This document shows, piece by piece, positions 13,882 to 43,094 of a stretch of DNA of 64,000 nt. Source of the DNA: an uncultured candidate division Zixibacteria bacterium (GTDB lineage: Bacteria > Zixibacteria > MSB-5A5 > UBA10806); the NCBI GenBank assembly GCA_963801605.1, contig CAWDFP010000006.1, forward strand, positions 64,001 through 128,000, given 5' to 3'. The notes beneath the pieces were generated by a model, which did no database searches, was not told the origin of the DNA, and worked only from the letters and a program-made list of their open reading frames with translations. The position numbers and the translations under genes were made by a program. The stretch's first letter is position 1. Every line of letters starts with the position of its first letter.

Positions 13882-13882
13882 T

Positions 13883-22356: not shown

Positions 22357-23747
22357 TCAGTCCGGTTTGATACTTTTTCCCCTTTTCAGAAACCTGCCAT
22401 GCCCCGCCTTGGCGACAAATTTTCCATTTTCAGCTACAATCTCACCGCGGCTTATTGTCAATACCGGATATCCCTGCAATTTGAATCCCTCATAAGGTGA
22501 CCAGTCGCATTTTGTTTGAAGGCGTCGATGCGAAATCGTCACCCTCTGATTGTGGATTGAATATTACCAGGTCAGCATCGGAGCCAAGAGAGATTGTTCC
22601 TTTTTGAGGATAAAGACCGAAAAGCCTGGCGGGATTGACGCAGAGGAGTTCAATCATTTTCGATGAGGAAAGCCTCCCCTTACCTACGCCATAAGTGTAT
22701 AGCAGCGGAAGCAGCGTCTCAACGCCGGGCAGACCATAGGGTATCTTTGTGAAATCGCCGCCCCAGCGCGCTTTTTGTTTGCTTCGAAAATGTGCAGTTA
22801 TCGGTGGCTACGACAGAGATAGTGCCATCCGACAGCCCATTCCAAAGCGCTATAGAATCGGCTTTTTTCTTTATTTGGGGACAGGTGGCATAGAGATAGC
22901 CATTAGGTTTCTTAAAAACTGAATCGTCAAATAATAGATAATGCGGGCAAGTCTCAGCATAAACATTTACGCCGCGCCGCTTGGCCTGCCTGACGATTTC
23001 AACTCCCTCCTGCGTGGAAAGATGAACGATATAAAGCCTGCCTCCCGTGGCCTCAGCCCAGGTGACTGCTCGTTGGACCGCTTCGGCCTCGATGAAATTG
23101 GGACGAGATAGCACGTGGCAGTAAGCGCCGAACCGCTTCATATCCTCTTTATTGTGATAGCGGTCAACTAGTAAATCCAGTACTCCGGCCGATTCGGCGT
23201 GGACTGTCACCATGCCACCGTATTTGGATGATTCCTCAAGAGCGGAGAATATGGCGGAATCACTGCTCATCAGCCCGGCTTTGGCATAGATCATATACAT
23301 TTTGAATGATGTAACACCGTTAGCAGCGATCTTTCCCATTTCGATTTTAGTTTTATCATTCCAGTCAGTTGGCACGGCATGAAGAGCATAATCGATTGCG
23401 ACTTGGCTATCGGCTTCTTGGCGCCTATCGCGAATTGCCTGTGATAGCGTTTTCCCTTTTTCCTGGATGGCAAAATCGATCACTGTCGTTACGCCGCCAC
23501 AGGCTGCCGCCCGCGTACCGCTGGCAAAATCCTCGGCTGTTATCGTTCCACCTGCCGGAAGCTGGAAATGAACATGGGCATCGATTATGCCCGGGAAAAT
23601 GAGCATCCCTTTAGCATCGATGATGGTCCTGGCATCGACTTGCAGATTACGTTTAATCGCCTTAATAATGCCCTTATCAATGGCGATATTGGCGACAAAA
23701 GACTTATTAGCCGTGACGATTTTGCCGTTTTGAATTAAGAGATCCAT
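22357..23747 (-). CDS. hydA: Dihydropyrimidinase/hydantoinase (HydA/HyuA-like), frameshift near 22778
   Basis: 'PGIIDAHVH','GGVTT','SFKMYM','VHAE','ETCPHYL'. The next frame gives 'GDFTKIPYGLPGVE...NPARLFGLYP.KG.I..G.DAD...DWSPYEG'. Confidence 0.88.
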
Positions 23748-23882: not shown

Positions 23883-26247
23883 TCACTTACCTTCCTTCTT
23901 TTTGATCTCGCCTAGCGCCAGGGCGATTTTTTCCGCGGTTATAGGCATCGATTTTATCCTGAGGCCTAGAGCATCTTCAACCGCGTTAGCGACAATCGGC
24001 GCGGCGGGAATCATCGTATGTTCGCCCATTCCTCGCGCCCCAAATGGGCCATCCGGCTGAGCGACCTCGACTAAAATCGGGACCACTTCATCGGGGATAT
24101 CCATTGCTGTGGGAATTTTGTAGTCGGTGAAATTGGCATTGAGGATTTTGCCCTTATCGTTAAATTTCATATCCTCGAAAAGCACGGTCGCTATTCCCTG
24201 CAAGAGGCCCCCGGCAATCTGCCCTTTAACCAAATCGGGATTAATTGCTTTCCCCAGATCAACCGCCAAGGCAACTTTAGGGATATGCATTTTGCCGGTT
24301 TCCTTATCAATTTCAAGGATAATTCCTGCCGCGCCTACCGTGTAATGTACATTGGGGTGACCACCCTGGCTTGTTTCGGGATCGCTAAGCGCCGATGCGA
24401 ACTCCGGCATGAACATCCCTCGTCCGACAATCGGGCCGCCACGGAAAGTGCCATCGGGTTGAGGAATTCCGCCGATGACAATATCCTTGAGCGGAATCGA
24501 AAAGCCCGGCTCGACCTGCGATTTCACCTGCTCATCCTCAAGATATAGCGAGGCCCGATCCTTGCACAAGCCGCGTTCAACAACATCGAATATCTGTTCT
24601 CTGGCGTCAGTAGCCGCCCGTTCAACAGCGGTGCCACATCCCCAAGTAATATGGGAGGCCACGGTCTGCCACTCGTAGGGATTGCGATCTGTATCGGGAA
24701 GCTCCACTCTGATTTTCTCCGGCGGAACCGTTAAAACCTCAGCGGCAATCTGTGCCATGACAGTCAGAAATCCCTGCCCGATTTCCATCGCGGAAACCAT
24801 GATATTGAGACTGCCATCCTCGTTGAATTTGAGAAACGCAGTCGAGGCCGCGTTGGGCGGCATGGCCGGAGCTTTCCAGAATAAGGCAAAACCCTTTGCC
24901 AATTGCCTTTTTGGGATTATTGGATTTTACTTTTTTGCCCCATTCAATTTCATGTGACACTTTATCAATGGCCTCGAATTAATCCGTTGGGATTCATTTC
25001 AGCCCCATAAGCCAGGGAGTCGCCTCTCGCGAATGGCGTTTTTCCGGCGGAACTCCACCGGATCGATACCCAGCTTCTTGGAGACCTCGTTGATATGAGA
25101 TTCCAATCCGAATAGAAATTCGGAATATCCAAACCCGCGATAAGGACCTCCGGGAGGAAGATTGGTATATACACAAACAGAATCAATGACTACATTCGGC
25201 ACGCGATATGGTCCTGTGGCGGAAAGCCCCGCGGCGTTGACCACGTTAGCGCCGTACTCGACATAAGCGCCGGCATCCCAATGAAGAATCTGCTCCAACG
25301 CGGTGATGGTGCCGTCACGTTTGACGCCGATTTTTATTCTGGCATCTAGTCCCTGTCGTTGATAGGTATTATAAAACTCCTGAGAGCGCGACCAAAGAAT
25401 CTTGACCGGATTTCCGCGAACAGCGGTCGCCAACGCAGCAGCCAGGATTTCCATCGAAACTCCGGCCTTGCCGCCGAAACCGCCGCCAACATAAGGCGAG
25501 ATCACTCGGATATCTTTATGAGTCAATCCCAGCGGTTCGAGAGCCTGGGCAAAGAGATGCCGTTGCGTAAACGGTGATTGCGAGGCGGTGTAGACTGTCA
25601 ACCGACCGGAATAATCGTAATGACCCGACCGCGCCGTGAGTCTCGATTGCGCAATGGGCGTAACGCGGGACAGTATAGTTATCCTCCAGAACGAGATCGG
25701 CTTCGGCAAATCCGCGCTCGATATCCCCTTTGCGCACTTTTCGCCAGTGGGCGATATTGGTACCCGCCTTGGGGAAAAACCAGGGGACATGAGAATAGCT
25801 GCCAAGATCCGGATGAATAAGCGTCGGATTTTTGCCAAGCGCAGTCTTGGACGGATAAGTACCGGCGGCAGCGGCTCATAATCAATTTTCACCAGTTGAG
25901 CAGCGCTTCTTAGCAGTTCGAGCATCGCGCGCGATTACCGCCGCCACCTGTTCGCCGACAAAGCGGACTCGATCCTGGGCGAAAATATAGCGGTCGTGCA
26001 TATAGAGGCCGAATCTATAGGGAAAATCTTTGCCGGTTACAACTTTGACTACACCCGGTACTTTTTCCGCTTTGGATTTATCGATTTTTTTAATTAACGC
26101 GTGCGGATGAGGGCTTTCGACAATTTCGGCGTAAAGCAGATTTGCGGCCAAAATCGAGATCATCGATAAACTGCGCCGCGCCGGTGATCTTGACTTTGCC
26201 GTCGATACCGGGCACTGGATTGGCCAACATATTTTAGATTCGTTCAT
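23883..26247 (-). CDS. Xanthine dehydrogenase-family molybdopterin subunit (set C), multiple frameshifts
   Basis: Fragments 'SPHPHALIKKID','GGGFGGKAG','PYRGFG','EIGQG','QTVASH','GARGMGEH'. ATG 26247 follows GGGGAG. Confidence 0.85.
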
Positions 26248-26724
26248 CGATTTTCTCCCCCTGTCCAGGCTCGGTGATGGCATCGATAATGGGACGAATA
26301 CCCGGTACAGCGGCAGAGATTGCCGGAAAGCGCCTCTTGATTCTCGCTGTATTCGGCGGGCGGTTTTTCTCTCAAGAAGTTCGGTCGCCGAAAGAATCAT
26401 TCCCGGCGCGCAAAAACCGCACTGGAATGAATTTCTGCGCCAGAAATGATTCCTGAAGCGGTGTCAGATTGCCATCCTCCATCAATCCCTTCAATGGTGG
26501 TAATCTCAGCGCCGTCGATCTCGATTGCCAGTATCAGGCAACTGCGCACGGTTTTACCATCGAGCATGAACAGTGCAGGTGCCGCAATCTCCGCGATTGC
26601 AGCCGCATTTGGGGCTATTTCACTCCCAGCCGGTCGCGAAGCATTTCGAGTAAGGATTTCGTACGGCTCAACATCGAGAGAATATTGCTCTGGCCGTTGA
26701 GCTTGAAATTATTATCTTTCAATG
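26244..26724 (-). CDS. Xanthine dehydrogenase-family 2Fe-2S subunit (set C), heavily frameshifted, ends approximate
   Basis: Minus-strand remnants encoding GCNRGDCG(T/A)CTV, TTIEG and GNLCRC between the FAD and Mo genes. Confidence 0.7.
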
Positions 26725-27641
26725 CTACACCTCCGATAGTCTCAACAACATTTTCGCCATACTCCGGACCATTCCGTCTAAGACGAGCGCCGCGCGCTTA
26801 CGAGAGCCGCGTTCGAACATTACCTGACACATGTGCAAACGGTATTCCTTCGATGGCTCTGATATCGGTAATCGGGAATGACAATTCCGGGTATCAGCGC
26901 ATTGGGCATGCTCGATAAGCAGATCATCCGGTTCTTGCCGTAAAGCAACTTCTCGATATTTCATAAGCGCGAATGGGAATAGGCCCTACTGAACCGAAGG
27001 CAATTCGATAAGCTGCGATCAGCGCAATGCCAGATCACTAGAACACTGGCCTGCGCCAGGTCTTCGCCGGAGTATCTGCCAAGCTTGGCGTAACAACCGC
27101 CATGCTTTTTCTTCGGAATTGGAATTTCGATTGCCGTTACAATCTCGCCCTTTTTCAGAGACGGTATTCCGGGGACCACGAAACCAATCAGCTATCGGGA
27201 TTTTTCTTTTGACCTTTGAGACCCTGAACCATGACGATAGCCTCATAGGAGCAGAGCAGCGGCCCGCGAATCCATACAGGGTACTGCAGAACAGATATTG
27301 CCGACCATGGTTGCCCTGTTTCGAATGCCAACCGAGCCAACTGTTCTGGCAACTTCAATAAATAGAGGCAGGCGCTTTTTGATGACGGCGGATTCTATGA
27401 TATCAGAAAAAGTAACCAAAGAGCCAAGTGTTAGCTTACCGTTTTTTACTTCTATCTTTTTAAGGGATGACAAACCTTTGATATCGATAAGCGCCGATGG
27501 TTTGGCCGCACCTTCTTTTATTTCGTTGATGATATCGGTTCCGCCCGCAAGAATAGCGGCATTCCTTTGTTTCGAAAGAAGCTTGAGCGCCTCGGACAAG
27601 GTTGCAGGCTTAAAATATTCGAAATCATGCACAATCGGCAT
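26725..27641 (-). CDS. Xanthine dehydrogenase-family FAD subunit (set C), multiple frameshifts
   Basis: 'FEYFKPATL','AGGTD','IRNRATMVGNICSAVPC','KLGRYSGEDLA'. Confidence 0.82.
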
Positions 27642-27651
27642 AAAATCCCCC

Positions 27652-28477
27652 TTACTTTCCGGGCGGCATAAAGGCCACGATTCGGCACATCGACGATTCC
27701 AGTTCGATTCCGCTTGAGCGGGAAACAACCGATCCAGGCCCGCTTGTTGGACAGCTTGTCTATATCTCCGCCAAGATTTTCAGCATGGACAATTTTTTTC
27801 GGGAAAAGATTCAAATGCATCACCTGGTAGTACTCGTCCGGAGGGAAACATCTCGTCCCAGGACCTGGCCATATTTGATCTGAAGTTTTTCCTCGGCTTC
27901 GATAAAAAGATCGGGATGCCATTTGCGAATGATCGTGTTCATGGGATGGTCGGCGCTGCCGCAATCGACACCAATCCATTTGATTTTCATCTTGGCTACC
28001 CACTTGTGAAAGCCCGGCCCCGGTCCCGGATGCTTGACAAAATAGCGCATTTCGTCGGATTTTTTCTGATCCCAGGCATATTTGTGATAACCGGTGTTGA
28101 TAATCAGGATATCGCCTTTTTGGATATCGACTCTTTCGGTCAGCATTTCGGGAGTGTAAAGATCGTAATCATCGACTGCAGTCCGAAATATCGACTACTG
28201 CGCCCGGGCCGATCCATTCCTCTATCGGTACCTGGCCTATGGATCGTCCTGAGGCATGGAAATGAATTTCGCCATCCATGTGGGTACCGACGTGATTACT
28301 GGTAGTGATAATCTGGCCGTTAGCTCCCTGTCCCATGTGCGCCCCGGCGATTCGCTTGAAATACTGTATCCCGAGCGGCGCGTAGCTTGGCCAGGGAGGC
28401 GTATGGATACTGAGCCGCTGTGTCAGGTCATAGACCTTGATTTCATCCATGAATTTGAGGAACTGATTAATTTTCAT
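27652..28477 (-). CDS. Cyclase / kynurenine-formamidase-family metal hydrolase, frameshifted
   Basis: 'HVGTHMDGEIHF' (HxGTHxD),'GDILIINTG','IGVDCGSADHP','HAENLGG'. Confidence 0.85.
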
Positions 28478-29886
28478 CTTCCAGGCTCCTTCATATTTTC
28501 CAAAATTTTTGCCAACCCATCATAAGCCCGACCGAACGGTTCGCCCGGCGCGTTTAGCACTCCGGCTCCGATCTGACCGACACCGGCATCTTTGTGCGCT
28601 ACGCCGGTATCGATAAAGGGCAACACGTTATTTTCGACAACCTTGATGACATCGATCCCTGTCGGGGTTCCGCGGAAATCAAGATATGGTATCTGATACG
28701 CTTTATTCTCCGAGGACGTTATCTCGTACATTTCCAGAGTATAGTTTTGGGCATCCTTAGCGCTGCCACCCACAAAACCCACAATAGCGGGCGCGGAGGC
28801 AATCGCAAATCCGCCCAGCCCATAAGTTTCAGTGATAGCGCTATCGCCGATATCGGGGTTGGCATCGTTTTTAGAGAAACCCGCAAAATATAGGGCGTCA
28901 GGAATTGGCGCGGGGCCGGTGAACCACTGATTTCCGGTACCGGCCAGCTGTACTCCGAAATCAACACCATTTCGGGCCATCGTCACAACCACGCTGCTAA
29001 GCTCAATGTTTCTGGCAGCGTCAAGCGAAACTTTAGCGGCCGCCATCGATAGGTTCAGGAAGAAATGATCGTTGGAATTGATGAACTCCATCACCCTGGC
29101 TGCTGTCTCACTATCGGAACAAGTCCTCATAATGGCGGGGGCAATAATCCTAAAGAGAAGCGATGTTGCCGCACGATTCCTGTTATGAAGCTCGTCGCCC
29201 ATGTGAAGTGCCTGAGCGATGATACTCTTGAGATCGATCTGGCCGATTTTCTCAATCGCGCTTTGAAGAACAGGATATAGCGTATCATTCATCCACTTGA
29301 GGCGCACTATAACATCATCGCTATAAGCGCCATAACGAAGGACCTTACCTAAACCTTCATTCATCGTAGTAAACGCGAGATTGCCAAAGGTCTCGTTCTT
29401 AATGATAAAGACCGGCATTGACGGTGATATGATACCGGCCATCGGACCTACCGAGGCGTGTTCGTGGCAAGGGGAATATTCAATTTTCGGAGCCAGTTGC
29501 TCGGCCTCGGTGCGATTTGACGCCATCCCCTCATATATCAGCGCGCCGATTACGGCTCCCTTCATGGGGCCGCACATTCTATTCCAGGTGATAGGCGGAC
29601 CGGCATGAAGGATCATGTTATTCTTCATATCCGGGATTACATCAATCGCTTTGGCCAGGCCGATTAGAACAGGCTTACCGTCAATAATCTTTTTTACGGC
29701 ATTTTGATTGGCTGATTCGATTATCCGGCGATTGGATTTAATTATCTGACGTGAATTTTCAGCAACAATGATTGGCGGGCGCCAATCGAGTTGAATCGAT
29801 TCGATATTATTGATATCCAGGGGCTGCTTGAAACTCTCCAAACCCATATTTATGATTTTTAGCTCTTTTCCGAATAGCTCTTTCAT
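28474..29886 (-). CDS. DUF1116 (YlbE/YahG-like) protein
   Basis: 'ILHAGPP','PCHEH.SVGPMAG','NEGLGKVLRYGA','MGDELHNRN','DIGDSAITE','TGVAHK'. Confidence 0.9.
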   Translation of the reverse strand: MKELFGKELKIINMGLESFKQPLDINNIESIQLDWRPPIIVAENSRQIIKSNRRIIESANQNAVKKIIDGKPVLIGLAKAIDVIPDMKNNMILHAGPPITWNRMCGPMKGAVIGALIYEGMASNRTEAEQLAPKIEYSPCHEHASVGPMAGIISPSMPVFIIKNETFGNLAFTTMNEGLGKVLRYGAYSDDVIVRLKWMNDTLYPVLQSAIEKIGQIDLKSIIAQALHMGDELHNRNRAATSLLFRIIAPAIMRTCSDSETAARVMEFINSNDHFFLNLSMAAAKVSLDAARNIELSSVVVTMARNGVDFGVQLAGTGNQWFTGPAPIPDALYFAGFSKNDANPDIGDSAITETYGLGGFAIASAPAIVGFVGGSAKDAQNYTLEMYEITSSENKAYQIPYLDFRGTPTGIDVIKVVENNVLPFIDTGVAHKDAGVGQIGAGVLNAPGEPFGRAYDGLAKILENMKEPGR

Positions 29887-31442
29887 GAGAGTTCCTTCGC
29901 AATGAAACCAGCCAGACGGCTGGCAGCGGCGTTTGATTCCTTGACGATAACGCCAATTTTACTCAATCCCTCGACAACCATAGATCGATTTTGAGGGTCT
30001 TTATCGGTGCCGGTCACAGAACAGATAAAAGAAAGCTGCCGTCCAGATTTTTGGGCGATTGACATAGCTTCCTCAATAGCAGGAGCGATCTCCTCAAGCG
30101 GATTCATATTGGCGCCGAATCCCAGGACGATATCAAATAGGATTACGGCCGTTTCGGGATCATCAGATTCTTGAATGATTCGTTTTTTTCTGAGCGTGAA
30201 ATCTATCATCGGGTGAAGCCGTCCGAGAGTAAACTCGTCAGCGCCCATATCGATAAAGGTATGCTTTTCGCTTTTGAGAACATCGTTTAAATCATTGTTA
30301 TCCTTGATCGGAGAATTGGAATAAATATTATTCAACATGCCTTTTAACAATACCTGTGTCTCATAGCAGTACGTACCGCCACTGAAAAGTCCCCTTATAT
30401 ATTTTTGGCCAGGCGCCATACCGGTGGTTTGGGTTTTGGCAAGTTCGATAAGCTTGGCATCAGAACCTATAAATTGATTTGGCTTTTCGCCTTTCGATAA
30501 GGCAACCGCAGCCAGGGCACCTTCCTCAAGTGATTTTGCATAATAGATACGGCTGTTTGATTTTAAGTTTTCAGCGCCGAGAAATATCGCCACCAGCGGT
30601 TTGGTTACATCTTTCAAAACCGATTCAATCTTCTCAAGTGTCTCCGGCGCCGGTGGCTTGGAAACAAGAAGAATAACCTTGGTATTATCATCCGCCGCAA
30701 GCGCCTTGAGGCTTTGGATAAACATCATCCCGCGCAGATCGCGCCCGATATCACGGCTTCCGGTGCCGATTGCCTGTGAGATACCATATCCGGCATTAGA
30801 AATAATACAGCTAACCTCCTGCAGGCCGGTCCCGGATGCAGCCACAATTCCGATATCCCCGTGGTTGACGGCATTGGCAAATCCAAGGGGAATACCATTT
30901 ATAATCGCCGTACCACAATCGGGACCCATTACCAGCAAACCCTGTGATGCCGCATAATGCTTAAGTTCAATCTCCTTTTCGAGCGGGACATTATCGGAAA
31001 AAAGCATCACGTGGAGTCCTGATTTGAGAGCGCGCATAGCCTCATCACCGGCAAAACGGCCCGCCACCGAAATAATGACGAGATTAGCGTCAGGCATTAC
31101 ATTTAAAGCGGAGTCTATCGTCCGGGGAACGCCTACCGATCCCTTTTTATCCGTGGCTTTTAAGGATGATAATAATTTATCGATTTCATTGGGTAATCGT
31201 TTAGCGAGGTCTTCGTTTTCGGTTTTAAGAACAATCAGAAGATCGTTATCGCAGGAATCTCGAAGCTTGTCGTTCATCATACCCGCCGACTCCAGTATCG
31301 CTTTGTTGCTGTCGCTTCCCATAATGGCGGCGGAATCAAGCACGCCGGGAAGCTCTCCGAGCTTCTGAGCCAGACGCATCAACGTTACAGAATCGTAATA
31401 TTCGCCCTTGCGAACAACTCCATTTATAAAATGACTGTTCAT
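29883..31442 (-). CDS. fdrA: FdrA/YahF-like acyl-CoA synthetase alpha-like protein
   Basis: 'YYDSVTLM','HVMLFSDNV','MGPDCGTA','ASGTGLQEV','GLFSGGT','GRLHPMID'. Confidence 0.9.
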   Translation of the reverse strand: MNSHFINGVVRKGEYYDSVTLMRLAQKLGELPGVLDSAAIMGSDSNKAILESAGMMNDKLRDSCDNDLLIVLKTENEDLAKRLPNEIDKLLSSLKATDKKGSVGVPRTIDSALNVMPDANLVIISVAGRFAGDEAMRALKSGLHVMLFSDNVPLEKEIELKHYAASQGLLVMGPDCGTAIINGIPLGFANAVNHGDIGIVAASGTGLQEVSCIISNAGYGISQAIGTGSRDIGRDLRGMMFIQSLKALAADDNTKVILLVSKPPAPETLEKIESVLKDVTKPLVAIFLGAENLKSNSRIYYAKSLEEGALAAVALSKGEKPNQFIGSDAKLIELAKTQTTGMAPGQKYIRGLFSGGTYCYETQVLLKGMLNNIYSNSPIKDNNDLNDVLKSEKHTFIDMGADEFTLGRLHPMIDFTLRKKRIIQESDDPETAVILFDIVLGFGANMNPLEEIAPAIEEAMSIAQKSGRQLSFICSVTGTDKDPQNRSMVVEGLSKIGVIVKESNAAASRLAGFIAKELS

Positions 31443-31449: not shown

Positions 31450-32271
31450 TTAAATTCGATTAAATGTTAAAAACACACCAACTCCCCAATCGGCGCCGGA
31501 TGTTTCGCCTATTTGGCATAATTGCTTGGTACAAGAATCGATTTTATCATTCGACTCAAAAATGAGAGCCATGAGTAGCGCCTTTTGATGTTCGGTATAG
31601 CAGCCATCCCTGGCACATTTAAGAAAGGCGTTACTCAGAAGATTCTTTCCGATGGCATTGGCATAAATATCATTAACCAGACCCGAATAATCCCGTCCGA
31701 AAACTTTCTCGGCGGCTTTGTAGGCGGCTATCATACCTGTGTTGAAATCGTCTCCGCTGGGAGTCAAGCCGATCCCCAGCCCGCGCATCATACGCACACC
31801 GATTATGGTTTGTCCCTGTTGCATATACCTTGAGGCGCTTTTGGACTGCGCAAACATCATTATTTCCCGGGCTCCCCGGAGATCAGTAAGGTATCCTGGT
31901 TCGATCAATACGGCCAGGCTCTTGGGAGGGGAATAAGCAATTAGAGCATCTTTAAAAGTTTGAAGATTAGAAAATAATACTAAAGGTTCAGGTTCTTCAA
32001 AAAAGACCAGTTCCGAATGAAAGCGCGTTCGACCATCACAGGGAAATTCGTTATCATCTATAAACAAGCGGCATTCATCAATTTCAAGAGCTTGCACCGC
32101 ATCGAAATTAATCCCTCGCGCTACCAGATTGATTGGGCCCGAGCCGACATCCTCCGTCACGACGGCGATCAACTCGCCATTACACTCAAAGTTTGCGGCT
32201 TTCGAGAACCTCGAATGAACCCGGTATCGCCCGGGAACTAATTTATCTCCGATGCTCAGGACTTCAATCAT
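31450..32271 (-). CDS. DUF2877 (YlbF/YahE-like) protein
   Basis: 'VHSRF','GLGIGLTPSGDDF','GETSGADW'. Confidence 0.88.
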   Translation of the reverse strand: MIEVLSIGDKLVPGRYRVHSRFSKAANFECNGELIAVVTEDVGSGPINLVARGINFDAVQALEIDECRLFIDDNEFPCDGRTRFHSELVFFEEPEPLVLFSNLQTFKDALIAYSPPKSLAVLIEPGYLTDLRGAREIMMFAQSKSASRYMQQGQTIIGVRMMRGLGIGLTPSGDDFNTGMIAAYKAAEKVFGRDYSGLVNDIYANAIGKNLLSNAFLKCARDGCYTEHQKALLMALIFESNDKIDSCTKQLCQIGETSGADWGVGVFLTFNRI

Positions 32272-32615
32272 GCCTTAAAGAATACCATCCCCATATATTC
32301 GTTGTACTCATCCCGACGGACAACCTGCACTTTGCCGCGGACTTTCATCCCCATTTGAGGATTTTCGATATCGAGCTGCCCGGTAATACGGTTGCCATCG
32401 GAAAGTTCGACGATCCCTAAACCGAGTGTTACAGTTTCAAAATCCGGAGGCAAAGTATAGAGAGTGGTATAAGTAAGAAGCTTCCCCTCTTTAGGAAGCG
32501 GCACGATGTCGAATTCGTTGTGGTCGTTCTTATGACAGTTGCAGCAGATAGTTCGATACGGATATTGCACATGGCCGCACTTTTTGCATTTGTAAGCGTA
32601 TATGTTCATTTCCAT
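32268..32615 (-). CDS. DUF35 Zn-ribbon/OB-fold thiolase partner
   Basis: 'CKKCG...YP...CCNC','GKLLTYT','GIVEL..G.RITGQL'. Confidence 0.9.
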   Translation of the reverse strand: MEMNIYAYKCKKCGHVQYPYRTICCNCHKNDHNEFDIVPLPKEGKLLTYTTLYTLPPDFETVTLGLGIVELSDGNRITGQLDIENPQMGMKVRGKVQVVRRDEYNEYMGMVFFKA

Positions 32616-32618
32616 AAA

Positions 32619-33794
32619 CTAATTCTCCCTGACAAATGTGAGACAAACCACATTGTTGCCGAAACCGCCGAAATTGCAGGTAAATCCTACTCTGGCATTT
32701 TTAACCTGACGCTTGTCGGCCTCACCGCGAAGCTGCTGTACAATTTCATGCGCCTGCCCCACTCCGGTCGCTCCGACCGGATGACCCTTGGCTTTGAGGC
32801 CGCCGGAAGTGTTAATCGGAAGCTTACCGCCAAGTTTAGTTACTCCTTTTTCCAGCGCGATATGGCCTTGACCTTTGGGGAAAAATCCTACCTCTTCGCT
32901 TTCGGCGATTTCGAGGATCGTAAAGGCATCATGCAACTCGGCAACATTGACATCCTGAGGCGTTAGTTTCGCCATGGCGAATGATTGCCGGGCGGCTTCC
33001 CGGACCGCTAATAGCTCAGTTGGATCTTTACGATCATGCACAGAATGCGTATCGGTGGCCTGGCCTACTCCTGCCAAACGAACCAAAGGTTTGCCAGTCT
33101 TTTTGGCAACATCGGCGCTTGTTAAGATCAGGCAGGCGGCGCCATCAGACACCGGGCAACAATCGAAAAATCTGAGCGGATCGGCAACATAAGGATTGTT
33201 GGTGGAAGCCTCTGGCGAGTCGAGTATGCCCTCGATAGTAATCGGTTCGTGCAAATGCGCAAACGGATTTAGCATGGCGTTGGTATGATTTTTAACGGCC
33301 ACCATCGCCAGATGCCTGGATGTAACTCCATATTTATTCATATACAGCCGAGCGAACATTCCTGCGAGCGATGGCAGCGTTACGCCATAAATATATTCCG
33401 CTAATGGATGAGTGAGCGTAGCCACAAATTCAGTAGCCTCAAGATTGTTTACCTCGCGCATCTTTTCGGCACCAACCACCATGACGACATCATGCATACC
33501 GGAGGCGACCGCCAGGAATCCCTGCTTGATCGCCGAGGCTCCGGATGCCGGTCCGTTTTCGATTCCATCGGCGCCGGCAGGTGTCAGGCTAAGATTATCG
33601 ATTACGGCGCTGGCCAGCCCGGTTTGATGGTTGAGTCTGGCTGCGCCCATGTTGGCCACATAGAGATGATCGATTTTATCCAAGCCCGAATCTCGAAGAG
33701 CCATTAGAGCCGGATAAGCGGCGATTTCAATTAAAGGATATTCCAGGCGAGTGAAGCTTGTTATGCCAATCCCAGCTACATAAACCTCTCGCAT
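32619..33794 (-). CDS. Thiolase-superfamily (SCP-x/archaeal-type) protein lacking the nucleophile Cys
   Basis: 'GAEKM','KNH.NA..NP.AH','DCCPVSDGA','ELHDAFT','INTSGGLKAKGHPVGATG'. The CASG site reads ENGPASG. Confidence 0.88.
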   Translation of the reverse strand: MREVYVAGIGITSFTRLEYPLIEIAAYPALMALRDSGLDKIDHLYVANMGAARLNHQTGLASAVIDNLSLTPAGADGIENGPASGASAIKQGFLAVASGMHDVVMVVGAEKMREVNNLEATEFVATLTHPLAEYIYGVTLPSLAGMFARLYMNKYGVTSRHLAMVAVKNHTNAMLNPFAHLHEPITIEGILDSPEASTNNPYVADPLRFFDCCPVSDGAACLILTSADVAKKTGKPLVRLAGVGQATDTHSVHDRKDPTELLAVREAARQSFAMAKLTPQDVNVAELHDAFTILEIAESEEVGFFPKGQGHIALEKGVTKLGGKLPINTSGGLKAKGHPVGATGVGQAHEIVQQLRGEADKRQVKNARVGFTCNFGGFGNNVVCLTFVREN

Positions 33795-33795
33795 T

Positions 33796-34542
33796 TTAAT
33801 TCCCTCCCAACCTGCGGCGCTGTTCAATCAGAGCGGTGGCAGTAGAATCGTATAGCGAACGGGTAGCAGCCAAAAGATCGATGGGGGGCGTGGGCGGATC
33901 GCTTGGAGGCATTATCGCCTCTTTAGCTTTGATCAGAAGATGTCCCGGTACGGGACGGCGTCCCACCACCAGGCTAGTGCGGGCTTTTTCGAAAATCTCC
34001 TTTGTAAGAGACCAGGACGGCACGCCGCCAAGTTCGTGGGGGATATCAAATCGTTTTTCCAGCTTATATTCAATCATCCAGCGACGGAACCCGATTGGTG
34101 ATTCGGCCACAATCAGCACTTCCTTTTGCCCCAGGATATCCAGATGATACTCCATCTTGGCGGCGAAGGCATGCGCCCCAATCCGGAGCCCTCGTCTGAG
34201 AGCCAGCGTATGATACGACATGCCAATATCGGCGCTCACTCTTCTGCCGTTAACGATGGCGGCCAGTTCACCGTCGATCTGGGCGGCAAGGACGTACTCA
34301 TCCTGAACCCGGTAGGTATAGTAACCCAGCAGTTCGGCGTAAACCCGAGCGGCAACAATATGGTAATAATCGCGCTCGACATGCATCAGCTTTTCGACAT
34401 GCGGCAGGATATCGGGAATCTCATCGCGGCTTACCTGCCTGATAATCATCTCCTCGCCGCCCGCAAGAGTCATAAGTTTGGGCGGAAACTCGGGCATCGG
34501 CGTATCCACAGGGCGAAGAATCTTCTCCAGGTCAACGGCCAT
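33796..34542 (-). CDS. Hypothetical protein, possible GNAT-like acyltransferase fold
   Basis: 248 aa with strong SD (AGGAGG). 'HTLALRRGLRIGAH' resembles GNAT motif A. The fold call is inference. Confidence 0.6.
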   Translation of the reverse strand: MAVDLEKILRPVDTPMPEFPPKLMTLAGGEEMIIRQVSRDEIPDILPHVEKLMHVERDYYHIVAARVYAELLGYYTYRVQDEYVLAAQIDGELAAIVNGRRVSADIGMSYHTLALRRGLRIGAHAFAAKMEYHLDILGQKEVLIVAESPIGFRRWMIEYKLEKRFDIPHELGGVPSWSLTKEIFEKARTSLVVGRRPVPGHLLIKAKEAIMPPSDPPTPPIDLLAATRSLYDSTATALIEQRRRLGGN

Positions 34543-35342: not shown

Positions 35343-37337
35343 CTACTTCAATAAAAGCATTTTTATGGAGGAGGCGTTATCGCCTGAAAGCCTGGCGAAA
35401 TAGATGCCGGCAGAAACGGGAATGCCTTTTAAGTCGGTGCCGTCCCAAACGGGATTATTACCGTTGGCATGAAGCTTTTTAACAAGTCTGCCGGTAGTAT
35501 CATAAATAAGAATGATACTGTTTTGATGCAGTTGGCCATCGAGTTGAATTATGGTTGAGCTATTAAATGGGTTGGGGTAGTTGGCTTTTATCGATAGAAC
35601 CTGAGGTAAAACGGGAGAATCAACCGCTCCGGTAGTTTGATCACCTAAGACGACAATGATATGTCTGTGCGCAGACCAGCCATCGGCGGCAAGTTCGATA
35701 TTAAATATTACGGTATCGCCGGAATTCAGTTCATTCGAAAAATGAACGGTCCATCCCATAACGGCGGAGGTATCGTCATGAGCCAGAGGACCGAAGGCGA
35801 TATCGCCGGAGAGAATCTGAACATTGGGATTTGTAGATGTCAGGTGGGCTGAGGCGTTTGCCGCGGCTGCACCGAGATTATTAATCACGATATTAAAATC
35901 AAGTGTAGCACCGGGAAATATAATGGGATCGGAAGAGTTCTCGGAAACTATCGTTATAAACGGATTGTCGGGAGTCGGCATATAATCGATTGCTCTTAAA
36001 ATATTGATCAGACCCCAGCCGTAATTATTATCCTCGCCGGGCGTTCCCAGATCGAGAGCAGAATTCATCAGCGCTTGCTTGATCTCTGATGGAGTGGCCT
36101 CTGGATTGTATTGCCTCAGTATGGCAACAGCTCCAGCGACATGAGGGGCGGCCATCGAGGTACCCGACATAACAGCATAGCCGCCGGTTCGGCTGGTGGA
36201 ACGGATCCCGACTCCGGGTGCAGTAACCTCGGGCTTGATGCTGACATTATCGCAGGCCGATGGGCCGCGGCTGGAGAAATCAGCGACCTGAAAATCGGGA
36301 GTGCCGGCATTAATAGCGCCAACCGAAAAGGAATTAAAATTGGTCGTAACGCGATCTGCCGGGATACGGATTGTGCTGGGGTTGGAACCCTCATTTCCAG
36401 CGGCGAAAATGCAAACCACTCCGGCGGCTTCGAGATTATCTATGGCCTCCCAGAAAGTGGCCTCACAGGCGGGATAATATCCCAACGGAATTCCCCAGGA
36501 GTTGTTGACAACGTCGGGGACATCATCAGTAGTAGCGGGGTCACCATCGGGATCGGCCGCCCACTGGAATGCGGCCAGGATGTCGGAGATAGTCCTTTGA
36601 ATGCCGGCTCCCCTATCAACCACTGCGGCTGCGATCCACTGCGCGCCAGGAGCGACGCCGACCGTGTCATTTCCCTCGGAGCCGACCATGGTCCCCATAG
36701 TGTGAGTGCCATGGCCGTTGTTATCGAAAGGAGTCTGGGTGTTCGTATAAGAGTCGAACCAACAGGCATCAGGCGTACCGCCGTTGTTGCCTCGGTATTT
36801 AGATGCTAACGCTCCATGAGCGCCATATACGCCAGTATCGAAATTGCAAACCAGGCTACCGGAACCATCAAGACCGATTCTCCAGGCATCAGGAGCTTTG
36901 ATCGCAAAGAGACTGCTGTCGGGACCGTTGCTCAGGATGGTTGTTTCATGCTGCTCAACTGGAGCAATCAATTCGATGGGGTAATCTTCGGATATTGATT
37001 GGACATCGGGACGGGCAGCCAGTGCCTCGAGAGCGGCGGAATCGCCGGTGACCTTAACGATATTGGCAATCCAAAAACGCTCGTAGCTTACAATTTTTCC
37101 GGATTCGACTGCATTGAGAGCGCCGACGAAATCGCTTTGAGATACGGTTGAAGTCGTTCTCAGATTTTCAACTATGGACTTATGACCAAGCTTTTTATTT
37201 CCCGCAAAATTGGCAGCGATTGATGGAGGGGTGTCATTTATAATTTGGAAAAGAATGGTCCTTTCGGAAGCCAGACACAGACTGGGGAAGATCGATAAGA
37301 TTGATATAATTGAAAGCAGATTTCGGTATTTTCTCAA
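35343..37337 (-). CDS. Secreted S8 serine peptidase (bacillopeptidase F-like) with NYPNPFN C-terminal domain
   Basis: Signal peptide, triad motifs 'FDTG','HGTHTMG','GTSMAAPH', C-terminal 'NYPNPFN...GIYF...KMLLLK'. TTG start after AAGGAGG. Confidence 0.92.
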   Translation of the reverse strand: MRKYRNLLSIISILSIFPSLCLASERTILFQIINDTPPSIAANFAGNKKLGHKSIVENLRTTSTVSQSDFVGALNAVESGKIVSYERFWIANIVKVTGDSAALEALAARPDVQSISEDYPIELIAPVEQHETTILSNGPDSSLFAIKAPDAWRIGLDGSGSLVCNFDTGVYGAHGALASKYRGNNGGTPDACWFDSYTNTQTPFDNNGHGTHTMGTMVGSEGNDTVGVAPGAQWIAAAVVDRGAGIQRTISDILAAFQWAADPDGDPATTDDVPDVVNNSWGIPLGYYPACEATFWEAIDNLEAAGVVCIFAAGNEGSNPSTIRIPADRVTTNFNSFSVGAINAGTPDFQVADFSSRGPSACDNVSIKPEVTAPGVGIRSTSRTGGYAVMSGTSMAAPHVAGAVAILRQYNPEATPSEIKQALMNSALDLGTPGEDNNYGWGLINILRAIDYMPTPDNPFITIVSENSSDPIIFPGATLDFNIVINNLGAAAANASAHLTSTNPNVQILSGDIAFGPLAHDDTSAVMGWTVHFSNELNSGDTVIFNIELAADGWSAHRHIIVVLGDQTTGAVDSPVLPQVLSIKANYPNPFNSSTIIQLDGQLHQNSIILIYDTTGRLVKKLHANGNNPVWDGTDLKGIPVSAGIYFARLSGDNASSIKMLLLK

Positions 37338-37535
37338 AGTCCCTCCTTGTTGGCTAAGAATAGGTCAAATGCCATGCCACGAGATGCATATAGTTGGGAC
37401 TGACGATGCCTACATAACTTATTCAATATTAATATGTTAAGGCGCGGTTTCAGGCTTTATCAAAAACAACCAGATACCATATTAAGCGTTATGTGCAGGA
37501 TAATGCAGATATACTGTAAATGAGGGGCTTGAATT

Positions 37536-37571
37536 AAAAAAAGCCTCCAGGCCGTTGAAAGCCTGGAGGCT
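37536..37571 (-). terminator. Rho-independent terminator
   Basis: AGCCTCCAGGC/GCCTGGAGGCT stem followed by a T-run on the minus strand. Confidence 0.85.
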
Positions 37572-37595
37572 AAGGATTTTGAGTAATCCTAAATC

Positions 37596-39449
37596 TTACT
37601 TAAGCAGAAGCATCTTCTTGGTTTCGACCGAATTGCCGACGCTTAAGCGATAGAAATAGACACCTGAGGCCTTGTCGGAGGCGTTCCAGGTGATGACGTT
37701 GCTACCGGCAGGATAGTTACCGGAGATCTTTTCGACCAACTGCCCGGTGATTGAGTAGATGCTGATGTTAACATCGGATGGTTTTGTCAGCGAGAAGCGG
37801 ATATTAGTTTGGGCGTTGAACGGATTAGGATAATTCTGTGAAAGGCTGAAGGCTTTTGGTGTAGCGCCTTCGTCAACCGACTGAACACCCTGAATAGCAT
37901 TGAGCCTAAACATGATGTTGGAAACTGAGCGGTTACGATCGGGAGCCATACCGCCAGTATATTCCCAGCCTCTATTGGATAGCGGAACTGTGTTATCCAT
38001 ACCAAACGCAACTGTATTTTGGAGGGCATGGAGAGCCACAAAATAGAATCTCTCGTCGGCCTGGAAGTTGAGATGCGCATAGGTGAAATCGACGTTGACC
38101 CAACCCGTATCGGATACCTGGACGGTATCACCAGCCAGTGGGGTAGCCAGATTCGGGTGACCGGTACCATCATCGCCGAATATCCAGGCCCAAACAGCTC
38201 CGGGAGCGGTTACGCTATAAACAAAGAATCGTCCGGTAGTAATGCCGACCGCTTCTGGAAGCTGGAATTCCTGACCAAACCCGGAGGAATCGCCTGTCCA
38301 GCTACGGCCATCATCAACTAATCCATCATCATATTTCAATTCCTGAGGGAATCTGTAGGAAACGATCTGAGATGTAATGCTGTTGTTGCCGGGAACAGCG
38401 TCGCGAAGCATAGTGCTGGACCAGGTTGCTTTGAAAATGGTGCGATTTGAATCGCAGGTGAATGAACCCGGGAAATCAATCCACTGCTGGAGGCCGGGAT
38501 CCAAAAATTCGATGGTATCGGCCTGATTGTAAAGCGATGTCGAACCGCGTCTGATCTGAGCACGTCCAACGATATTGGTATCCGGTCGATTTCCAAAATT
38601 CTTGAAGAGAGCACGGGGAGTGATCGAGCTGGAAGTTGGAATAAAGATTGCCTGGGAACCTTCGTTAAATGCCTGAACAACGCCGGCATCCTTAACCGCA
38701 TAGTTGGGGTTCGGGATGGGATGGAAGCGGATAGCGAGGCCATCATGCCACATATGGTTAGCTGGCAGGTTGCGGCGCAGGTACTGCAGGCCTACTGTTC
38801 CAGTTACATTCTCAATTCCGATGACAGTCATGGTGCTGTCTGAGGAATCAAGGAAACGGCCATGATTTGCCCCGTACTGATATGTGATGGATGAGTCGGC
38901 CGCATTGAGGATTAACTGGAAGGTATGAGTTGAATCGATGAAGCCATATTCACCGACGTTAATCCAGGAGACGACAAACGAATCGGCATGAGAATAATAG
39001 TAGCAGGATGCGTTACCGCGGGAAAAATCAAGGTCGCCGGTAAGGCAGGACATGTAATTGTTCGGCGGAGCAGCAGCCGGGATATCAGCAAAAGGATGGG
39101 CAAAGTTGTAATTATTGTCAAATTCGATATAGCCGTTGGAGCCGACCCAGCAACGGTTAACTGTATACCAATAGTAAGGGAAGTTGAAACCGATCGGTAT
39201 CGGGCCGATGTTGTTATCGTCCGTTAATCCGAGGACACGAGTTCCAATGGTTGAGATATCAACCCAGTTGTAAGGAACGGGACCACCGTTATCGTTGTCA
39301 ACCCAGTTATAACCGTAAGCATCACGGGTGGTGCTGCTATCGAACGGAATCGGGGGCTCAAAGTTCGCAGGATTGAAACCGTTATTGGCAGCAAAGGCCA
39401 ACTGGGCACTCAACAACAACAAAACCAACATCAATAGTAATCTTTTCAT
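37596..39449 (-). CDS. Secreted beta-rich protein with T9SS-type-A-like C-terminal domain
   Basis: Signal peptide, 'DAYGYNW','PIGFNFPYY','SNGYI','QNYPNPFN...SGVYFYRL...KKMLLLK'. Confidence 0.85.
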   Translation of the reverse strand: MKRLLLMLVLLLLSAQLAFAANNGFNPANFEPPIPFDSSTTRDAYGYNWVDNDNGGPVPYNWVDISTIGTRVLGLTDDNNIGPIPIGFNFPYYWYTVNRCWVGSNGYIEFDNNYNFAHPFADIPAAAPPNNYMSCLTGDLDFSRGNASCYYYSHADSFVVSWINVGEYGFIDSTHTFQLILNAADSSITYQYGANHGRFLDSSDSTMTVIGIENVTGTVGLQYLRRNLPANHMWHDGLAIRFHPIPNPNYAVKDAGVVQAFNEGSQAIFIPTSSSITPRALFKNFGNRPDTNIVGRAQIRRGSTSLYNQADTIEFLDPGLQQWIDFPGSFTCDSNRTIFKATWSSTMLRDAVPGNNSITSQIVSYRFPQELKYDDGLVDDGRSWTGDSSGFGQEFQLPEAVGITTGRFFVYSVTAPGAVWAWIFGDDGTGHPNLATPLAGDTVQVSDTGWVNVDFTYAHLNFQADERFYFVALHALQNTVAFGMDNTVPLSNRGWEYTGGMAPDRNRSVSNIMFRLNAIQGVQSVDEGATPKAFSLSQNYPNPFNAQTNIRFSLTKPSDVNISIYSITGQLVEKISGNYPAGSNVITWNASDKASGVYFYRLSVGNSVETKKMLLLK

Positions 39450-39555
39450 TCATTCCTCCTTAAAGTTTATCGAAAATCTACGATCAGATTAATTCTACTA
39501 AAATTTCACCTCCTTGGCAATGAATCATTTCTTTTCTTTAATAGTGAATTTGAAT

Positions 39556-42500
39556 TTATTTTAATAAAATCATCCTCTTAGTTGAAACGGCTCCGGATGT
39601 TTCCAGCCTATAGAAGTACAGCCCCGATGTTACAGTTTTGCCCAGATCATCAACGCCATTCCAGGTAATTTGATGTATCCCGGCGCCAAGGATTCCGTTT
39701 GCTCAATAACTTGATTCGCCGTCCCAATAGATCGTAAACAGCGAGATTAACATCCTGATCGGAAGGAAGTGAAAAAGAGATAACTGTACTGGCGTTGAAT
39801 GGATTGGGATAGTTCTGGGAAAGCTCGAAGGTGTTCGGTAGATCACCCTTATCGTTAATTCCCGTATCGAAGTGACCATAATAACCGGTGCGAGCCAAAT
39901 CTTTTCCGAAAACCGGCCAGGGGAAAATCTGGTTGGGCAGATCGGTCCTGTAATCTATGACGTCGAGATTATTGCCCGAGGTCTTAACGCCGACGACGAT
40001 TTCGCAATGGTTATCACCATCAAAATCGCTTAGCGCGGCGGCAGCAGAAATCGGTCCGCCAATACTGGCAGCCATCGGAAAGTTGCGTAACATCTGTCCG
40101 TGATGATTGACCGCATAAATGACGCCATCATAAGCACCAAAGACGATATCGGGGAAACCGTCACCGTCAACGTCACCCTCAACAGGTGAGGCGGTGATCA
40201 TAGCTCCAGCCTGAACAGGGAAACCTTCCTGCGGTTGGCCGTTGGCGCGAAAAACGTAAAGACGGGAATCGTTACATCCGACGGCTATTTCGAGATGCCC
40301 GTCATTGTCGATATCGCATAGAGACGGCGATGATGCCAGGGCTCCTCCCGCCATTGCCGGCCATCCGGGCATGGTCGCGCCATTGTAGTCGAGGGCGTAG
40401 AGGCTTCCGGCAGTCGTGCCAACGATCACATTGAGATGGCCATCACCATCGATATCAGCCACACACGGGGTGGTTTTAATTTGCCCGCCAATCCTTCTGG
40501 GAAATCCTGCGACCTCGCTCTTGTCAGCGTTCAAGGCGTGAACTGTTGAATCCATATCGCCGTAGATAACTTCGGGCAGGCCGTCAGCATCGAGATCTGC
40601 CAAAGCCACTGAACCCATAATATTGCCAGTACCCTGGAATGGCCAGGTTTCAAGATCGGCGCCGGTATTGGTTATGACGTAAATCCGCCTGGTGGCAAAC
40701 ATGCCAACCACGATCTCCAGCAGCGAATCGCCATTGATATCTCCAAGGACAGGAGTCGAAAAGGTGAGGGTACCGCAATTGCGCGGGAAATTTGGCAGGG
40801 TGTTACCATCGGGGCCCCAGGCATAAATATTGCCGTCACGGGACATCCCAACGATATCGAGATTGCCGTTATGGCCTAAATCGCCTGCGGCCGCGCCGCC
40901 GGGCGTTTCGCTGGTAACCGCCCTGGGCCATCCAGGTGTGATTGAACCGTTGGCTTCGAAGGAATAATAGTTGGCATTGCTGGCACTTATCAAAATTTCC
41001 CTGGCGCCATCAGCGTCGGTATCAACAATAAGCGGAGGGGAATCAATATTGCCGGGAGTATTAGCGGGGAATCCAGCTTGTTCCAAGGTTACGTCAACAT
41101 TCAAAGTAATAGTGGTATGATAACTGGTGTTGGACGTAAGATAGAGCGTAAAAGTATGGCTGCCCATACTGACATCGGAATTAACTCTGACGTCAAAAGG
41201 ATTGGATGTATTATTACCGGTGCCTGTCGGGCCGGAGATATTGCCAAAATCGGCAATTGAATCGAGGACGGTAAATTGGCCGTCAGAACGAAGCGTACCG
41301 ACTACGTTCGTAGCATTTGACCATATATTGGCCAGATCAACTACCAGCGAAAATCTTTCATTGGGATTGAGCCTGCCATCGCCGTCATCCTCGGTCAAAG
41401 TCAAAGTGCTATCGATCATTTTAAGACGGGGATAAATGTATCGTCCCACGGCGGCGGCGGCATTAACTCTGCCAGCGCCCATCATACCGCGTCGAGTTGG
41501 GTTGAGGTAATCGATTGTATCGGCAGTGGCGGTTAATCTGGTACGAACCTGATCTACCGTAAATGTTGGATTAGCGGCCCGAATAAGGCAGACGACGCCT
41601 GCGGTTATAGGAGATGCCATGGAAGTGCCGTCAAGCGCAGTATAGCTATTATGATCCCAGGTGGAATTGACGCCCTCGCCGGGCGCCGAAACGGTGATCC
41701 AGTTTCCATAGTTGGAAAATGATGCCAATTGGTCGGTGGAGCCAACGGCGGCTACCGCTATAACGTGGGCATAACCGGCCGGGTAAAATCTCGTCGATAC
41801 TCCGTCATTACCGGCGGCTCCGACTATTACCACTCCGGCATTATAAGCAGCCGTAATAATATTCTGTTCATATTGAGAAAAGTAGCTGCTTCCCCAGCTT
41901 AAATTTATGACCGTGGCGCCGTTGTCGGCAGCGTAGGTGATGCCGACAAATCCGTTATAAATATGTTCGGGGTCGTTATCCCTGGCGACTTTAACCGCCA
42001 TAAGCCTCGCGCCCCAGGCAACAGCAGCTCCCCCCTGGCCATTATCGCAAGCCATACTGGCGCATCCGGCCACATGGGTCCCGTGAGTGGGAACCGGCTC
42101 GAATGGAATAGGATCGTTTTGAGCGATATCATATCCGACAACGTCATCAATATAATCGTTACCGTCATCGTCAATGCCATTAATGTCGGTTCTGTGTAAA
42201 TCGTCCGTCGCCGTCGATATCCTCACCGCGATTGATCCACATATTGGGCTCAAGGTCAGGGTGATCGTAATATACACCGGAATCCACGATACCCAGGACC
42301 GGACGGCTGGTGGAATCGCCTCGAATAAAATCCCAAGCCAGGTAAGCCTCAGTGGTTCTCAATTGATACCAGGAGCCGATGAGCGGATCGTTAGGAACAT
42401 AAGTCAAATGCTGCATGCGATAAGGCTCTGAGGTTTCGATATGGGAATCGCCGGCAAAAGCGGTAATTGCCGAACTCAGATTACCGCCGTTACCCACGGT

Positions 42501-42797: not shown

Positions 42798-43031
42798 ACC
42801 GTTTCTCCCTGATAATTCCAATTAATTAAAAACTAAAGACATATAATCTTAGCGCGATCTTTGGTGTAACAAGATCTGGGTCCACATCTCATTTCCCGGC
42901 ATTGATTGCCCGCACACCTAAGATTAAGAAAGTATGAGGTTAATTGTCAAGCAAAATACGACTTTTTACCCCTCTTAAAAAAAGCCAAAAAGACTATGAT
43001 GGGCCAGCTAAAAGACTTTCGTTTTTCGCAC

Positions 43032-43065: not shown

Positions 43066-43094
43066 GAATAAATCTGTTAACCAAGTGTATAATC

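Follow-up and report, generated by a model that had tools for sequence, protein, structure and literature searches.

The window analysed here is a 64,000-nucleotide stretch from an uncultured Zixibacteria bacterium (contig CAWDFP010000006.1, positions 64,001 to 128,000). It carries an operon whose first three genes encode an orphan protein with a predicted GNAT fold, a thiolase-fold protein with proline in place of the nucleophilic cysteine (hereafter Pro-thiolase) and a DUF35 protein (Table 1). Comparison of motifs, folds, gene linkage and co-occurrence showed that this trio belongs to a real, strongly conserved module that is mis-annotated; the module is likely a variant of the thiolase/DUF35 systems working in a new branch of oxidative pyrimidine breakdown.

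The open reading frame (ORF) of the Pro-thiolase contains the motifs ENGPASG, LHDAF (within ELHDAF) and GHPVGATG. An original prediction, made from the window's letters alone, had stated that ENGPASG stands where ExxCASG is normally read and that the other two motifs are retained. Both statements hold: alignment places Pro82 opposite the nucleophilic cysteine of EAACASG in the solved thiolases 7YVY and 6ESQ, and the translated ORF has ELHDAF and GHPVGATG intact. Is the proline codon perhaps a sequencing error? ENGPASG is found in all of the closest homologs, 120 of 120 with the protein of the window itself included, and occurs 78 and 66 times in two locus sets of 80 each, with all four proline codons in use. 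Close homologs carry the name candidate division Zixibacteria. Conservation of the exchange, which the prediction had proposed checking, extends to two clades (A and B, about 55–60% identical): after removal of duplicates and short ORFs, Pro82 was present in 75/75 clade-A and 46/46 clade-B distinct full-length sequences. With the motif universal in homologs and spelled by four codons, a sequencing error is ruled out.

The Pfam profiles Thiolase_N, Thiolase_C and Thiolase_C_1 match the protein above cut-off, its top NCBIfam score is 406 against a cut-off of 420, and databases name such proteins 'acetyl-CoA acetyltransferase' (CoA, coenzyme A). Among the residues expected of thiolases, the nucleophilic Cys or Ser is replaced by Pro in all 121 sequences of the two clades, and the acid/base Cys of CxG or HDCF is missing, the motif being HDAF throughout; the His of GHP is in place (His338). 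Since 7YVY also has HDAF, loss of the acid/base Cys is not by itself disabling. His288 (HDAF) and His338 are each kept in 120/121 sequences, many other residues, among them His129, Glu133, His250 and Asn380, are at least 97% conserved in both clades, and Pro-thiolases from different phyla are 72–87% identical.

Could another residue have taken over as nucleophile, leaving an ordinary acetoacetyl-CoA thiolase? The database label would fit, as would the near-invariance of Cys213 and the haloarchaeal BktB/PhaA thiolases, which, according to PMC7137286, combine a Cys-less thiolase subunit that keeps the two His with an oligonucleotide/oligosaccharide-binding (OB)-fold subunit and function with Ser-His-His. 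However, the Ser of these enzymes, which is also found at the nucleophile position of 4YZO, can serve as nucleophile, whereas Pro cannot. Cys213, the sole near-invariant Cys, lies opposite Ser in both 7YVY and 6ESQ and opposite a second Cys of the SCP2 thiolase 6HSJ, which bears a nucleophile besides; Cys221, Cys373 and Cys384 are missing from 46/46 clade-B sequences; and a canonical thiolase is encoded elsewhere in the genome. A displaced nucleophilic Cys, which the original prediction had allowed for, is thus ruled out, by conservation and not by structure, and an ordinary thiolase is hardly credible.

Thiolases are described as having two oxyanion holes, one formed by the backbone NH of the nucleophilic Cys and the other by the GHP His (PMC6790690). 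Judging from the alignment, Pro82 would abolish both the nucleophile and its backbone NH and leave the His-based site. This loss, with His338 and His288 kept, fits stabilisation of an enolate without an acyl-enzyme.

The nearest solved relatives are 7YVY (276 bits) and the thiolase of the archaeal thiolase/DUF35/HMG-CoA (3-hydroxy-3-methylglutaryl-CoA) synthase complex (6ESQ/6ET9; 223 bits for 6ESQ). That complex shares the HDxF and GHP motifs, the DUF35 partner and a third enzyme encoded alongside, but here the nucleophilic Cys has given way to Pro and HMG-CoA synthase to a GNAT protein, in a catabolic setting. The archaeal complex reportedly couples an uphill step to a downhill one. Ltp2-ChsH2(DUF35) and Sal-Shy(DUF35) have in common with the trio a thiolase fold devoid of nucleophilic Cys (Gly in Sal), a DUF35 partner and enolate chemistry on CoA thioesters. 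The original prediction read the Pro-thiolase as a retro-aldolase of the Ltp2 type, and the sequence speaks against this reading: Ltp2 and Sal require as base the Tyr of YDHF/YDCY (PMC12329534), at which position the invariant LHDAF of the Pro-thiolase has His288, and the pathway proposed below offers no 3-hydroxyacyl-CoA. Similarity is also lower (6OK1, 114 bits), and the trio loci have no steroid or hydratase context. The SCP2-thiolase-like protein (SLP) of Trypanosoma brucei (5AB4), likewise thiolase-like, is reported to decarboxylate malonyl-CoA slowly (kcat 0.005/s; PMC12329534) but has a YDCF motif and weak similarity (55 bits).

The DUF35 gene lies directly after the thiolase gene, as predicted (3-nucleotide gap; PF01796 above cut-off, PF12172 slightly below). 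The prediction was also right that HMG-CoA synthase is not adjacent: none lies beside the window's thiolase gene (its neighbours are the GNAT and AllH genes) or among the conserved neighbours of relatives, and a normal HMG-CoA synthase-thiolase (ESACASG)-DUF35 cluster occurs at another site on the same contig. The GNAT gene ends 1 nucleotide before the thiolase ATG, which at 33794 is a more probable start than the TTG at 33827, and the DUF35 stop and AllH start overlap as ATGA.

Sequence searches of Pfam, NCBIfam and the PDB found no match to the orphan protein, which a protein language-model atlas labels putative N-acetyltransferase. Its structure model is confident (predicted local distance difference test, pLDDT, 86.6), and a Foldseek search with it returned 112 N-acetyltransferase-type matches at E ≤ 0.001, which bears out the earlier description of the gene as GNAT-like. 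The best structural match has Z 12.9 and a root-mean-square deviation of 3.1 Å over 162 residues; identity is at most 18% among the matches listed. The protein has an invariant S109-x-H111 ahead of an RRGLRIG loop, as well as AES and HELGG. The family numbers 2868 proteins at E ≤ 0.001; a search of a plasmid collection found no homologs. Three-chain prediction of the GNAT protein with thiolase/DUF35 scored 0.52 (best control 0.02), with at least 79% contact agreement between runs and a partner pLDDT of 84. The mark applied is passed by 116/157 solved complexes and 2/215 mismatches, and scores at the mark but not above 0.60 come from just 18 of the 157 and from both passing mismatches. The prediction thus lends weak support to the GNAT protein binding thiolase/DUF35.

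The module is spread over many bacterial phyla. Loci were taken from the best 80 of 103 genome matches to the GNAT protein (clade A) and the best 80 of 196 metagenome matches (clade B). Among the 80 genome loci, 78 have the thiolase, 72 DUF35, 48 AllG and 21 a permease; a ring-opening enzyme is present as cyclase (25 loci) or barbiturase (12), never both, and many of the remaining loci are cut short or split. AllG was found elsewhere in 29/32 genomes re-checked for a locus with AllG absent or cut. In the window's phylum AllG occurs in 5/285 genomes, among them all four that have a close GNAT protein. Two layouts recur: that of the window, GNAT-thiolase-DUF35-AllH-AllF-AllG-cyclase-molybdenum (Mo) enzyme, and, in Actinomycetota, barbiturase-AllH-AllF-AllG-Mo enzyme-GNAT-thiolase-DUF35-permease. 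Clade-B loci hold the same module with gene orders shuffled. Six loci (L176, L177, L181, L182, L184, L185) have single ORFs of 700–1040 residues that match AllG, with no separate AllF, and are likely AllF-AllG fusions.

On what substrate does the cluster act? The best PDB match of the ring-opener in related loci is barbiturase 5HWE, at 532 bits; cyanuric acid hydrolases reach no more than 311. All 10 full-length examples carry Asn/His/Lys/Val/Ala, an instance of the Asn/His/Lys/Val/Ser-or-Ala signature given for Bar specificity (PMC3758960). Signature and bit scores rule out cyanuric acid as substrate. The window has no barbiturase, and its cyclase likely stands in for one. The permease of trio loci belongs to NCS2, the nearest equivalog being uracil permease (below cut-off). 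The C-terminal half of the operon's Mo subunit is 68–70% identical to Mo subunits of barbiturase loci (the window's two others, 29–38%), and the operon's Mo hydroxylase is likely a uracil/thymine dehydrogenase. In other Elusimicrobiota the cyclase gene is followed by a uridine-phosphorylase-like gene (five loci) and preceded by a cytosine-deaminase-like gene (two loci), both slightly under cut-off.

Escherichia coli AllFGH interconverts oxalurate and oxamate + carbamoyl phosphate (PMC11326118). Ureidomalonate is the next homolog of oxalurate, so malonamate is the product to be expected of AllFGH here, and by this analogy we take it to be the probable one. As in E. coli, all three subunit families are adjacent and carbamate kinase co-occurs, but the substrate proposed here has one more carbon, and the conserved cluster lacks allantoin genes. 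Linkage with a Mo hydroxylase, AllFGH and a cyclase or barbiturase points to the sequence uracil, barbiturate, ureidomalonate, malonamate + carbamoyl phosphate, and the cluster very probably serves the oxidation of pyrimidines (uracil or thymine via barbiturate). The known oxidative route runs from uracil through barbiturate and ureidomalonate to malonate + urea, ureidomalonase being the last enzyme (PMC3758960). The clusters share with it barbiturase (12 loci), a Mo hydroxylase and a uracil-type permease, but AllFGH and the trio would replace ureidomalonase, and the cyclase would replace barbiturase in most phyla.

The ring opened in cyclase-type clusters might instead be purine-derived or some other heterocycle, with the trio acting on another ureide product. 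Genes downstream in the window resemble a purine/pyrimidine catabolic island, and in L190 AllFG is paired with a cyanuric-acid-hydrolase-type gene. But the window's Mo subunit, GNAT protein and thiolase are 68–75% identical to their counterparts in barbiturase loci, pyrimidine salvage-like genes flank the cyclase in other genomes, and comparison of relatives' loci places the downstream island outside the conserved trio cluster; a non-pyrimidine ring is distinctly improbable. The L190 cluster itself (L190:3981-9073, on a plasmid) comprises FdrA, DUF1116, the cyanuric-acid-hydrolase-type gene, carbamate kinase and allophanate hydrolase, and suggests a role for AllFG-type enzymes after the opening of triazine rings as well. 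AllFGH has been tied to biuret and purine genes, in a text that, as far as consulted, mentions neither barbiturate nor thiolase (PMC12625717).

In these clusters the trio behaves as an optional extra that acts downstream. A barbiturase-grade match was found in 14 of 301 sampled Actinomycetota, and the 13 found independently all lack the GNAT protein. Trio-less barbiturase neighbourhoods contain carbamate kinase in 10/15 cases and AllG in 6/15 (two plasmid-collection records counted), frequently in the actinobacterial order barbiturase-permease-carbamate kinase-AllHFG. Seven Actinomycetota loci (L208, L211-L213, L216-L218) have the arrangement barbiturase-(permease)-carbamate kinase-AllH-AllF-(AllG) with no trio; by their gene content such clusters may be a carbamoyl-phosphate-yielding alternative to ureidomalonase. 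The cyclase marker occurs in 32/251 sampled Elusimicrobiota. Of the 23 with a close cyclase, 19 are without the GNAT protein, 2 have the trio and 2 a distant GNAT protein alone. Within 13/20 trio-less Elusimicrobiota neighbourhoods lies a carbon-nitrogen hydrolase gene, in most cases flanked by the Mo subunit and AllH; its best NCBIfam match (below cut-off) is PRK10438, which we take to be the YafV/omega-amidase family. The substrates of omega-amidases are monoamides of dicarboxylic acids, succinamate for example, malonamate being unmentioned in the part of the source consulted (PMC5485471). The same amidase search in 160 trio loci gave one distant match. As the trio is optional and an omega-amidase-like gene occurs in its stead, the trio likely disposes of malonamate, and we regard malonamate as its probable substrate. 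A conserved gene of 324–343 residues separates AllF from AllG in four Elusimicrobiota (L272:8019-8993; also L273, L274, L275); the single copy scanned had no Pfam match.

Carbamate kinase, found in 0/80 clade-A loci vs 10/15 trio-less barbiturase loci, also suggested that carbamoyl phosphate might be what the trio uses up. The suggestion was dropped because 74/80 trio genomes encode the kinase elsewhere (a count with no baseline figure for comparison), the window's genome too encoding one, and because 8/80 clade-B loci hold both.

How might malonamate be disposed of? In the route that we propose, the Mo hydroxylase would oxidise uracil to barbiturate, the cyclase (barbiturase in Actinomycetota) would open the ring to give ureidomalonate, and AllFGH would split ureidomalonate with phosphate into malonamate and carbamoyl phosphate, the latter passing to ATP via carbamate kinase. 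The GNAT protein would then run an N-acyl transfer in reverse, converting malonamate + CoA to malonyl-CoA + NH3, and Pro-thiolase/DUF35 would decarboxylate malonyl-CoA to acetyl-CoA + CO2, pulling the GNAT step. By the same steps thymine would yield propionyl-CoA. Thiolysis of malonamate to malonyl-CoA is uphill and decarboxylation of malonyl-CoA downhill; their pairing would explain the tight linkage of the genes and a possible complex. All of these reactions are ones that we infer. The division of roles, with the GNAT protein loading CoA and freeing ammonia and Pro-thiolase/DUF35 decarboxylating, is a best guess that could well be right and could slightly more easily be wrong. Tentatively, we suggest that the trio may be a coupled three-protein 'malonamate:CoA lyase', in which a reversed GNAT reaction captures the amide as thioester, free of ATP cost, and decarboxylation by the Pro-thiolase provides the pull; it would complete an oxygen-independent uracil route giving carbamoyl phosphate and acetyl-CoA in many uncultured phyla, including gut bacteria. 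Among titles and abstracts (most subscription journals lie outside this scope) we found no description of the module or of a step from malonamate to acetyl-CoA; prior mention of the linkage of barbiturase and AllFGH is possible.

Several points weigh against this scheme. We know of no precedent for a GNAT protein thiolysing a primary amide. The AlphaFold model of the Pro-thiolase is poor (pLDDT 62, below 50 in loop 49–82), unfit for judging geometry, and was not used. An amidase homolog (50–57% identity) is encoded elsewhere in 7/9 trio-bearing Elusimicrobiota genomes and 4/50 other trio genomes, and in genome G023 the amidase sits in an AllFGH operon with a CoA-transferase, the trio being at another site. 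The amidase is missing from 7/20 trio-less Elusimicrobiota neighbourhoods, and the 20 genomes are kin. No biotin-dependent carboxyltransferase was found near 55 trio-less neighbourhoods drawn from Actinomycetota, Elusimicrobiota and the phylum of L077 and G225 (Bacillota lay outside the sample), so the decarboxylase role gains nothing from gene replacement. A sister GNAT clade (35–51% identity) occurs in eight genomes that have no close Pro-thiolase ortholog; GNAT proteins of this family can thus in some cases do without the Pro-thiolase. Finally, CtSal is reported to have no malonyl-CoA decarboxylase activity, and the same authors recast SLP as an aldolase (PMC12329534).

Two of these points can be seen at single loci. 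The operon at L101:6648-11994 consists of amidase, AllH, AllF, AllG, a CoA-transferase subunit, cyclase and Mo enzyme, with the trio elsewhere in the genome. Sister GNAT genes, with a motif like ATYESYNG (L226:12333-13061, L227, L276, L277, L278, L279, L087), are near cyclase and uridine phosphorylase in some genomes and beside an amidase in one (L277).

The sister GNAT proteins that occur apart from any Pro-thiolase, the absence of both the nucleophile and the acid/base Cys, and the predicted complex would also suit a Pro-thiolase that is a non-catalytic CoA-binding scaffold, with the GNAT protein doing the chemistry; conservation of the residues named above (His288, His338 and many others, such as His129, Glu133, His250 and Asn380) and the high identity across phyla speak against such a scaffold, and it is improbable. 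Roles could also be swapped, the GNAT protein being the malonyl-CoA decarboxylase and Pro-thiolase/DUF35 loading CoA on malonamate in the space that loss of the Cys leaves free. GNAT-fold decarboxylases exist (human malonyl-CoA decarboxylase, the curacin GNAT), the orphan has its invariant Ser109/His111, and in genome L277 the sister-clade protein adjoins an amidase. On the other hand, the top 50 fold matches listed for the orphan are all acyltransferases or putative ones, GNAT-fold malonyl-CoA decarboxylases being absent from the matches listed, an absence that excludes nothing; and the tetrahedral intermediate would need the oxyanion-hole backbone NH that Pro82 removes. We consider the swap quite unlikely.

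The original prediction had foreseen an undescribed CoA-dependent cleavage acting on a heterocycle-derived intermediate. That the enzyme is no ordinary thiolase stands, and CoA-dependent action is likely, but cleavage would probably not be of the retro-aldol type. Gene context suggests uracil or thymine, via barbiturate, as the likely heterocycle and malonamate as the likely intermediate. Cleavage of a C–C bond by the Pro-thiolase is still likely, either by decarboxylation, our best guess, or by a retro-Claisen elimination. In the latter case AllF or the GNAT protein would make malonamoyl-CoA, and the Pro-thiolase would cleave it to acetyl-CoA and a carbamoyl unit, from which a second carbamoyl phosphate would come. 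AllF does carry CoA-binding and ligase domains, the enolate-stabilising His pair is retained, and the Cys-less pairs of Ltp2 and Sal are described as catalysing eliminative C–C cleavage (PMC12329534); but the YDxF Tyr base is absent, the amidase in the trio's stead suggests release of ammonia and not recovery of a carbamoyl group, and CoA does not figure in the reaction mix listed for lysate assays of E. coli AllFGH (PMC11326118). We regard a retro-Claisen lyase as an unlikely competitor to the decarboxylase.

Frameshifts are numerous in the assembly, both in the operon (23883-28477) and in the mevalonate HMG-CoA synthase-thiolase cluster (L081:3842-6114). Since this unrelated cluster is frameshifted too, those in the operon suggest assembly errors (indels) and not decay. 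The 2Fe-2S gene of the Mo hydroxylase is present in relatives and unresolved in the window's frameshifted assembly. Promoter-like sites were no more numerous than in shuffles (25 vs 20.8 ± 4.6); terminator-like sites somewhat exceeded their shuffled counts (29 vs 18.0 ± 4.4), and no use was made of them. The island downstream of the operon (6233-23747) is a second catabolic one resembling anaerobic purine/pyrimidine clusters, with hydantoinase-like, MobA/MocA-like and XdhC genes, a carbamoyltransferase nearest YgeW, two further Mo hydroxylase sets, a dihydropyrimidine-dehydrogenase-like pair, an amidohydrolase and two pyridoxal-phosphate (PLP) enzymes. At 35343-46331 inspection by eye revealed a series of large proteins that look secreted; they have subtilisin-like motifs and end in C-terminal tails of the YPNPFN sorting type.

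Table 1. Genes and sites of the operon (positions in the window)
Feature	Position	Strand	Basis
GNAT-fold orphan protein, 248 residues, first operon gene	33796..34542	minus	no family match; predicted fold
Pro-thiolase, archaeal/SCP2-type thiolase fold, 391 residues	32619..33794	minus	Pfam; alignment to solved thiolases
Pro82 codon CCG, nucleophile position of the thiolase-fold protein	33549..33551	minus	alignment
DUF35 protein (zinc ribbon + OB fold), 115 residues, four invariant Cys	32268..32615	minus	PF01796
AllH-like (DUF2877) subunit	31450..32271	minus	PF11392
AllF/FdrA-like subunit, CoA-binding + CoA-ligase domains	29883..31442	minus	NF004760 over cut-off
AllG-like (DUF1116) subunit	28474..29886	minus	PF06545
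Cyclase-family hydrolase, fragmented by frameshifts; about 272 residues intact in relatives	27820..28477	minus	
Xanthine-dehydrogenase-type Mo hydroxylase genes, frameshifted; flavin adenine dinucleotide (FAD) and Mo pieces identified	23883..27728	minus	

Testing the scheme would be inexpensive, since it involves three small genes and two simple substrates, malonamate and malonyl-CoA. Oxidative pyrimidine degradation has been described as rare (PMC3758960). If the scheme is true, an energy-conserving branch would be added to this pathway and the pathway extended to many uncultured lineages; three groups of proteins, namely a cyclase subfamily, a large clade of AllFGH homologs and an orphan GNAT family, would gain a substrate; and proteins now labelled acetyl-CoA acetyltransferase would form a new catalytic class of thiolase/DUF35 enzymes.

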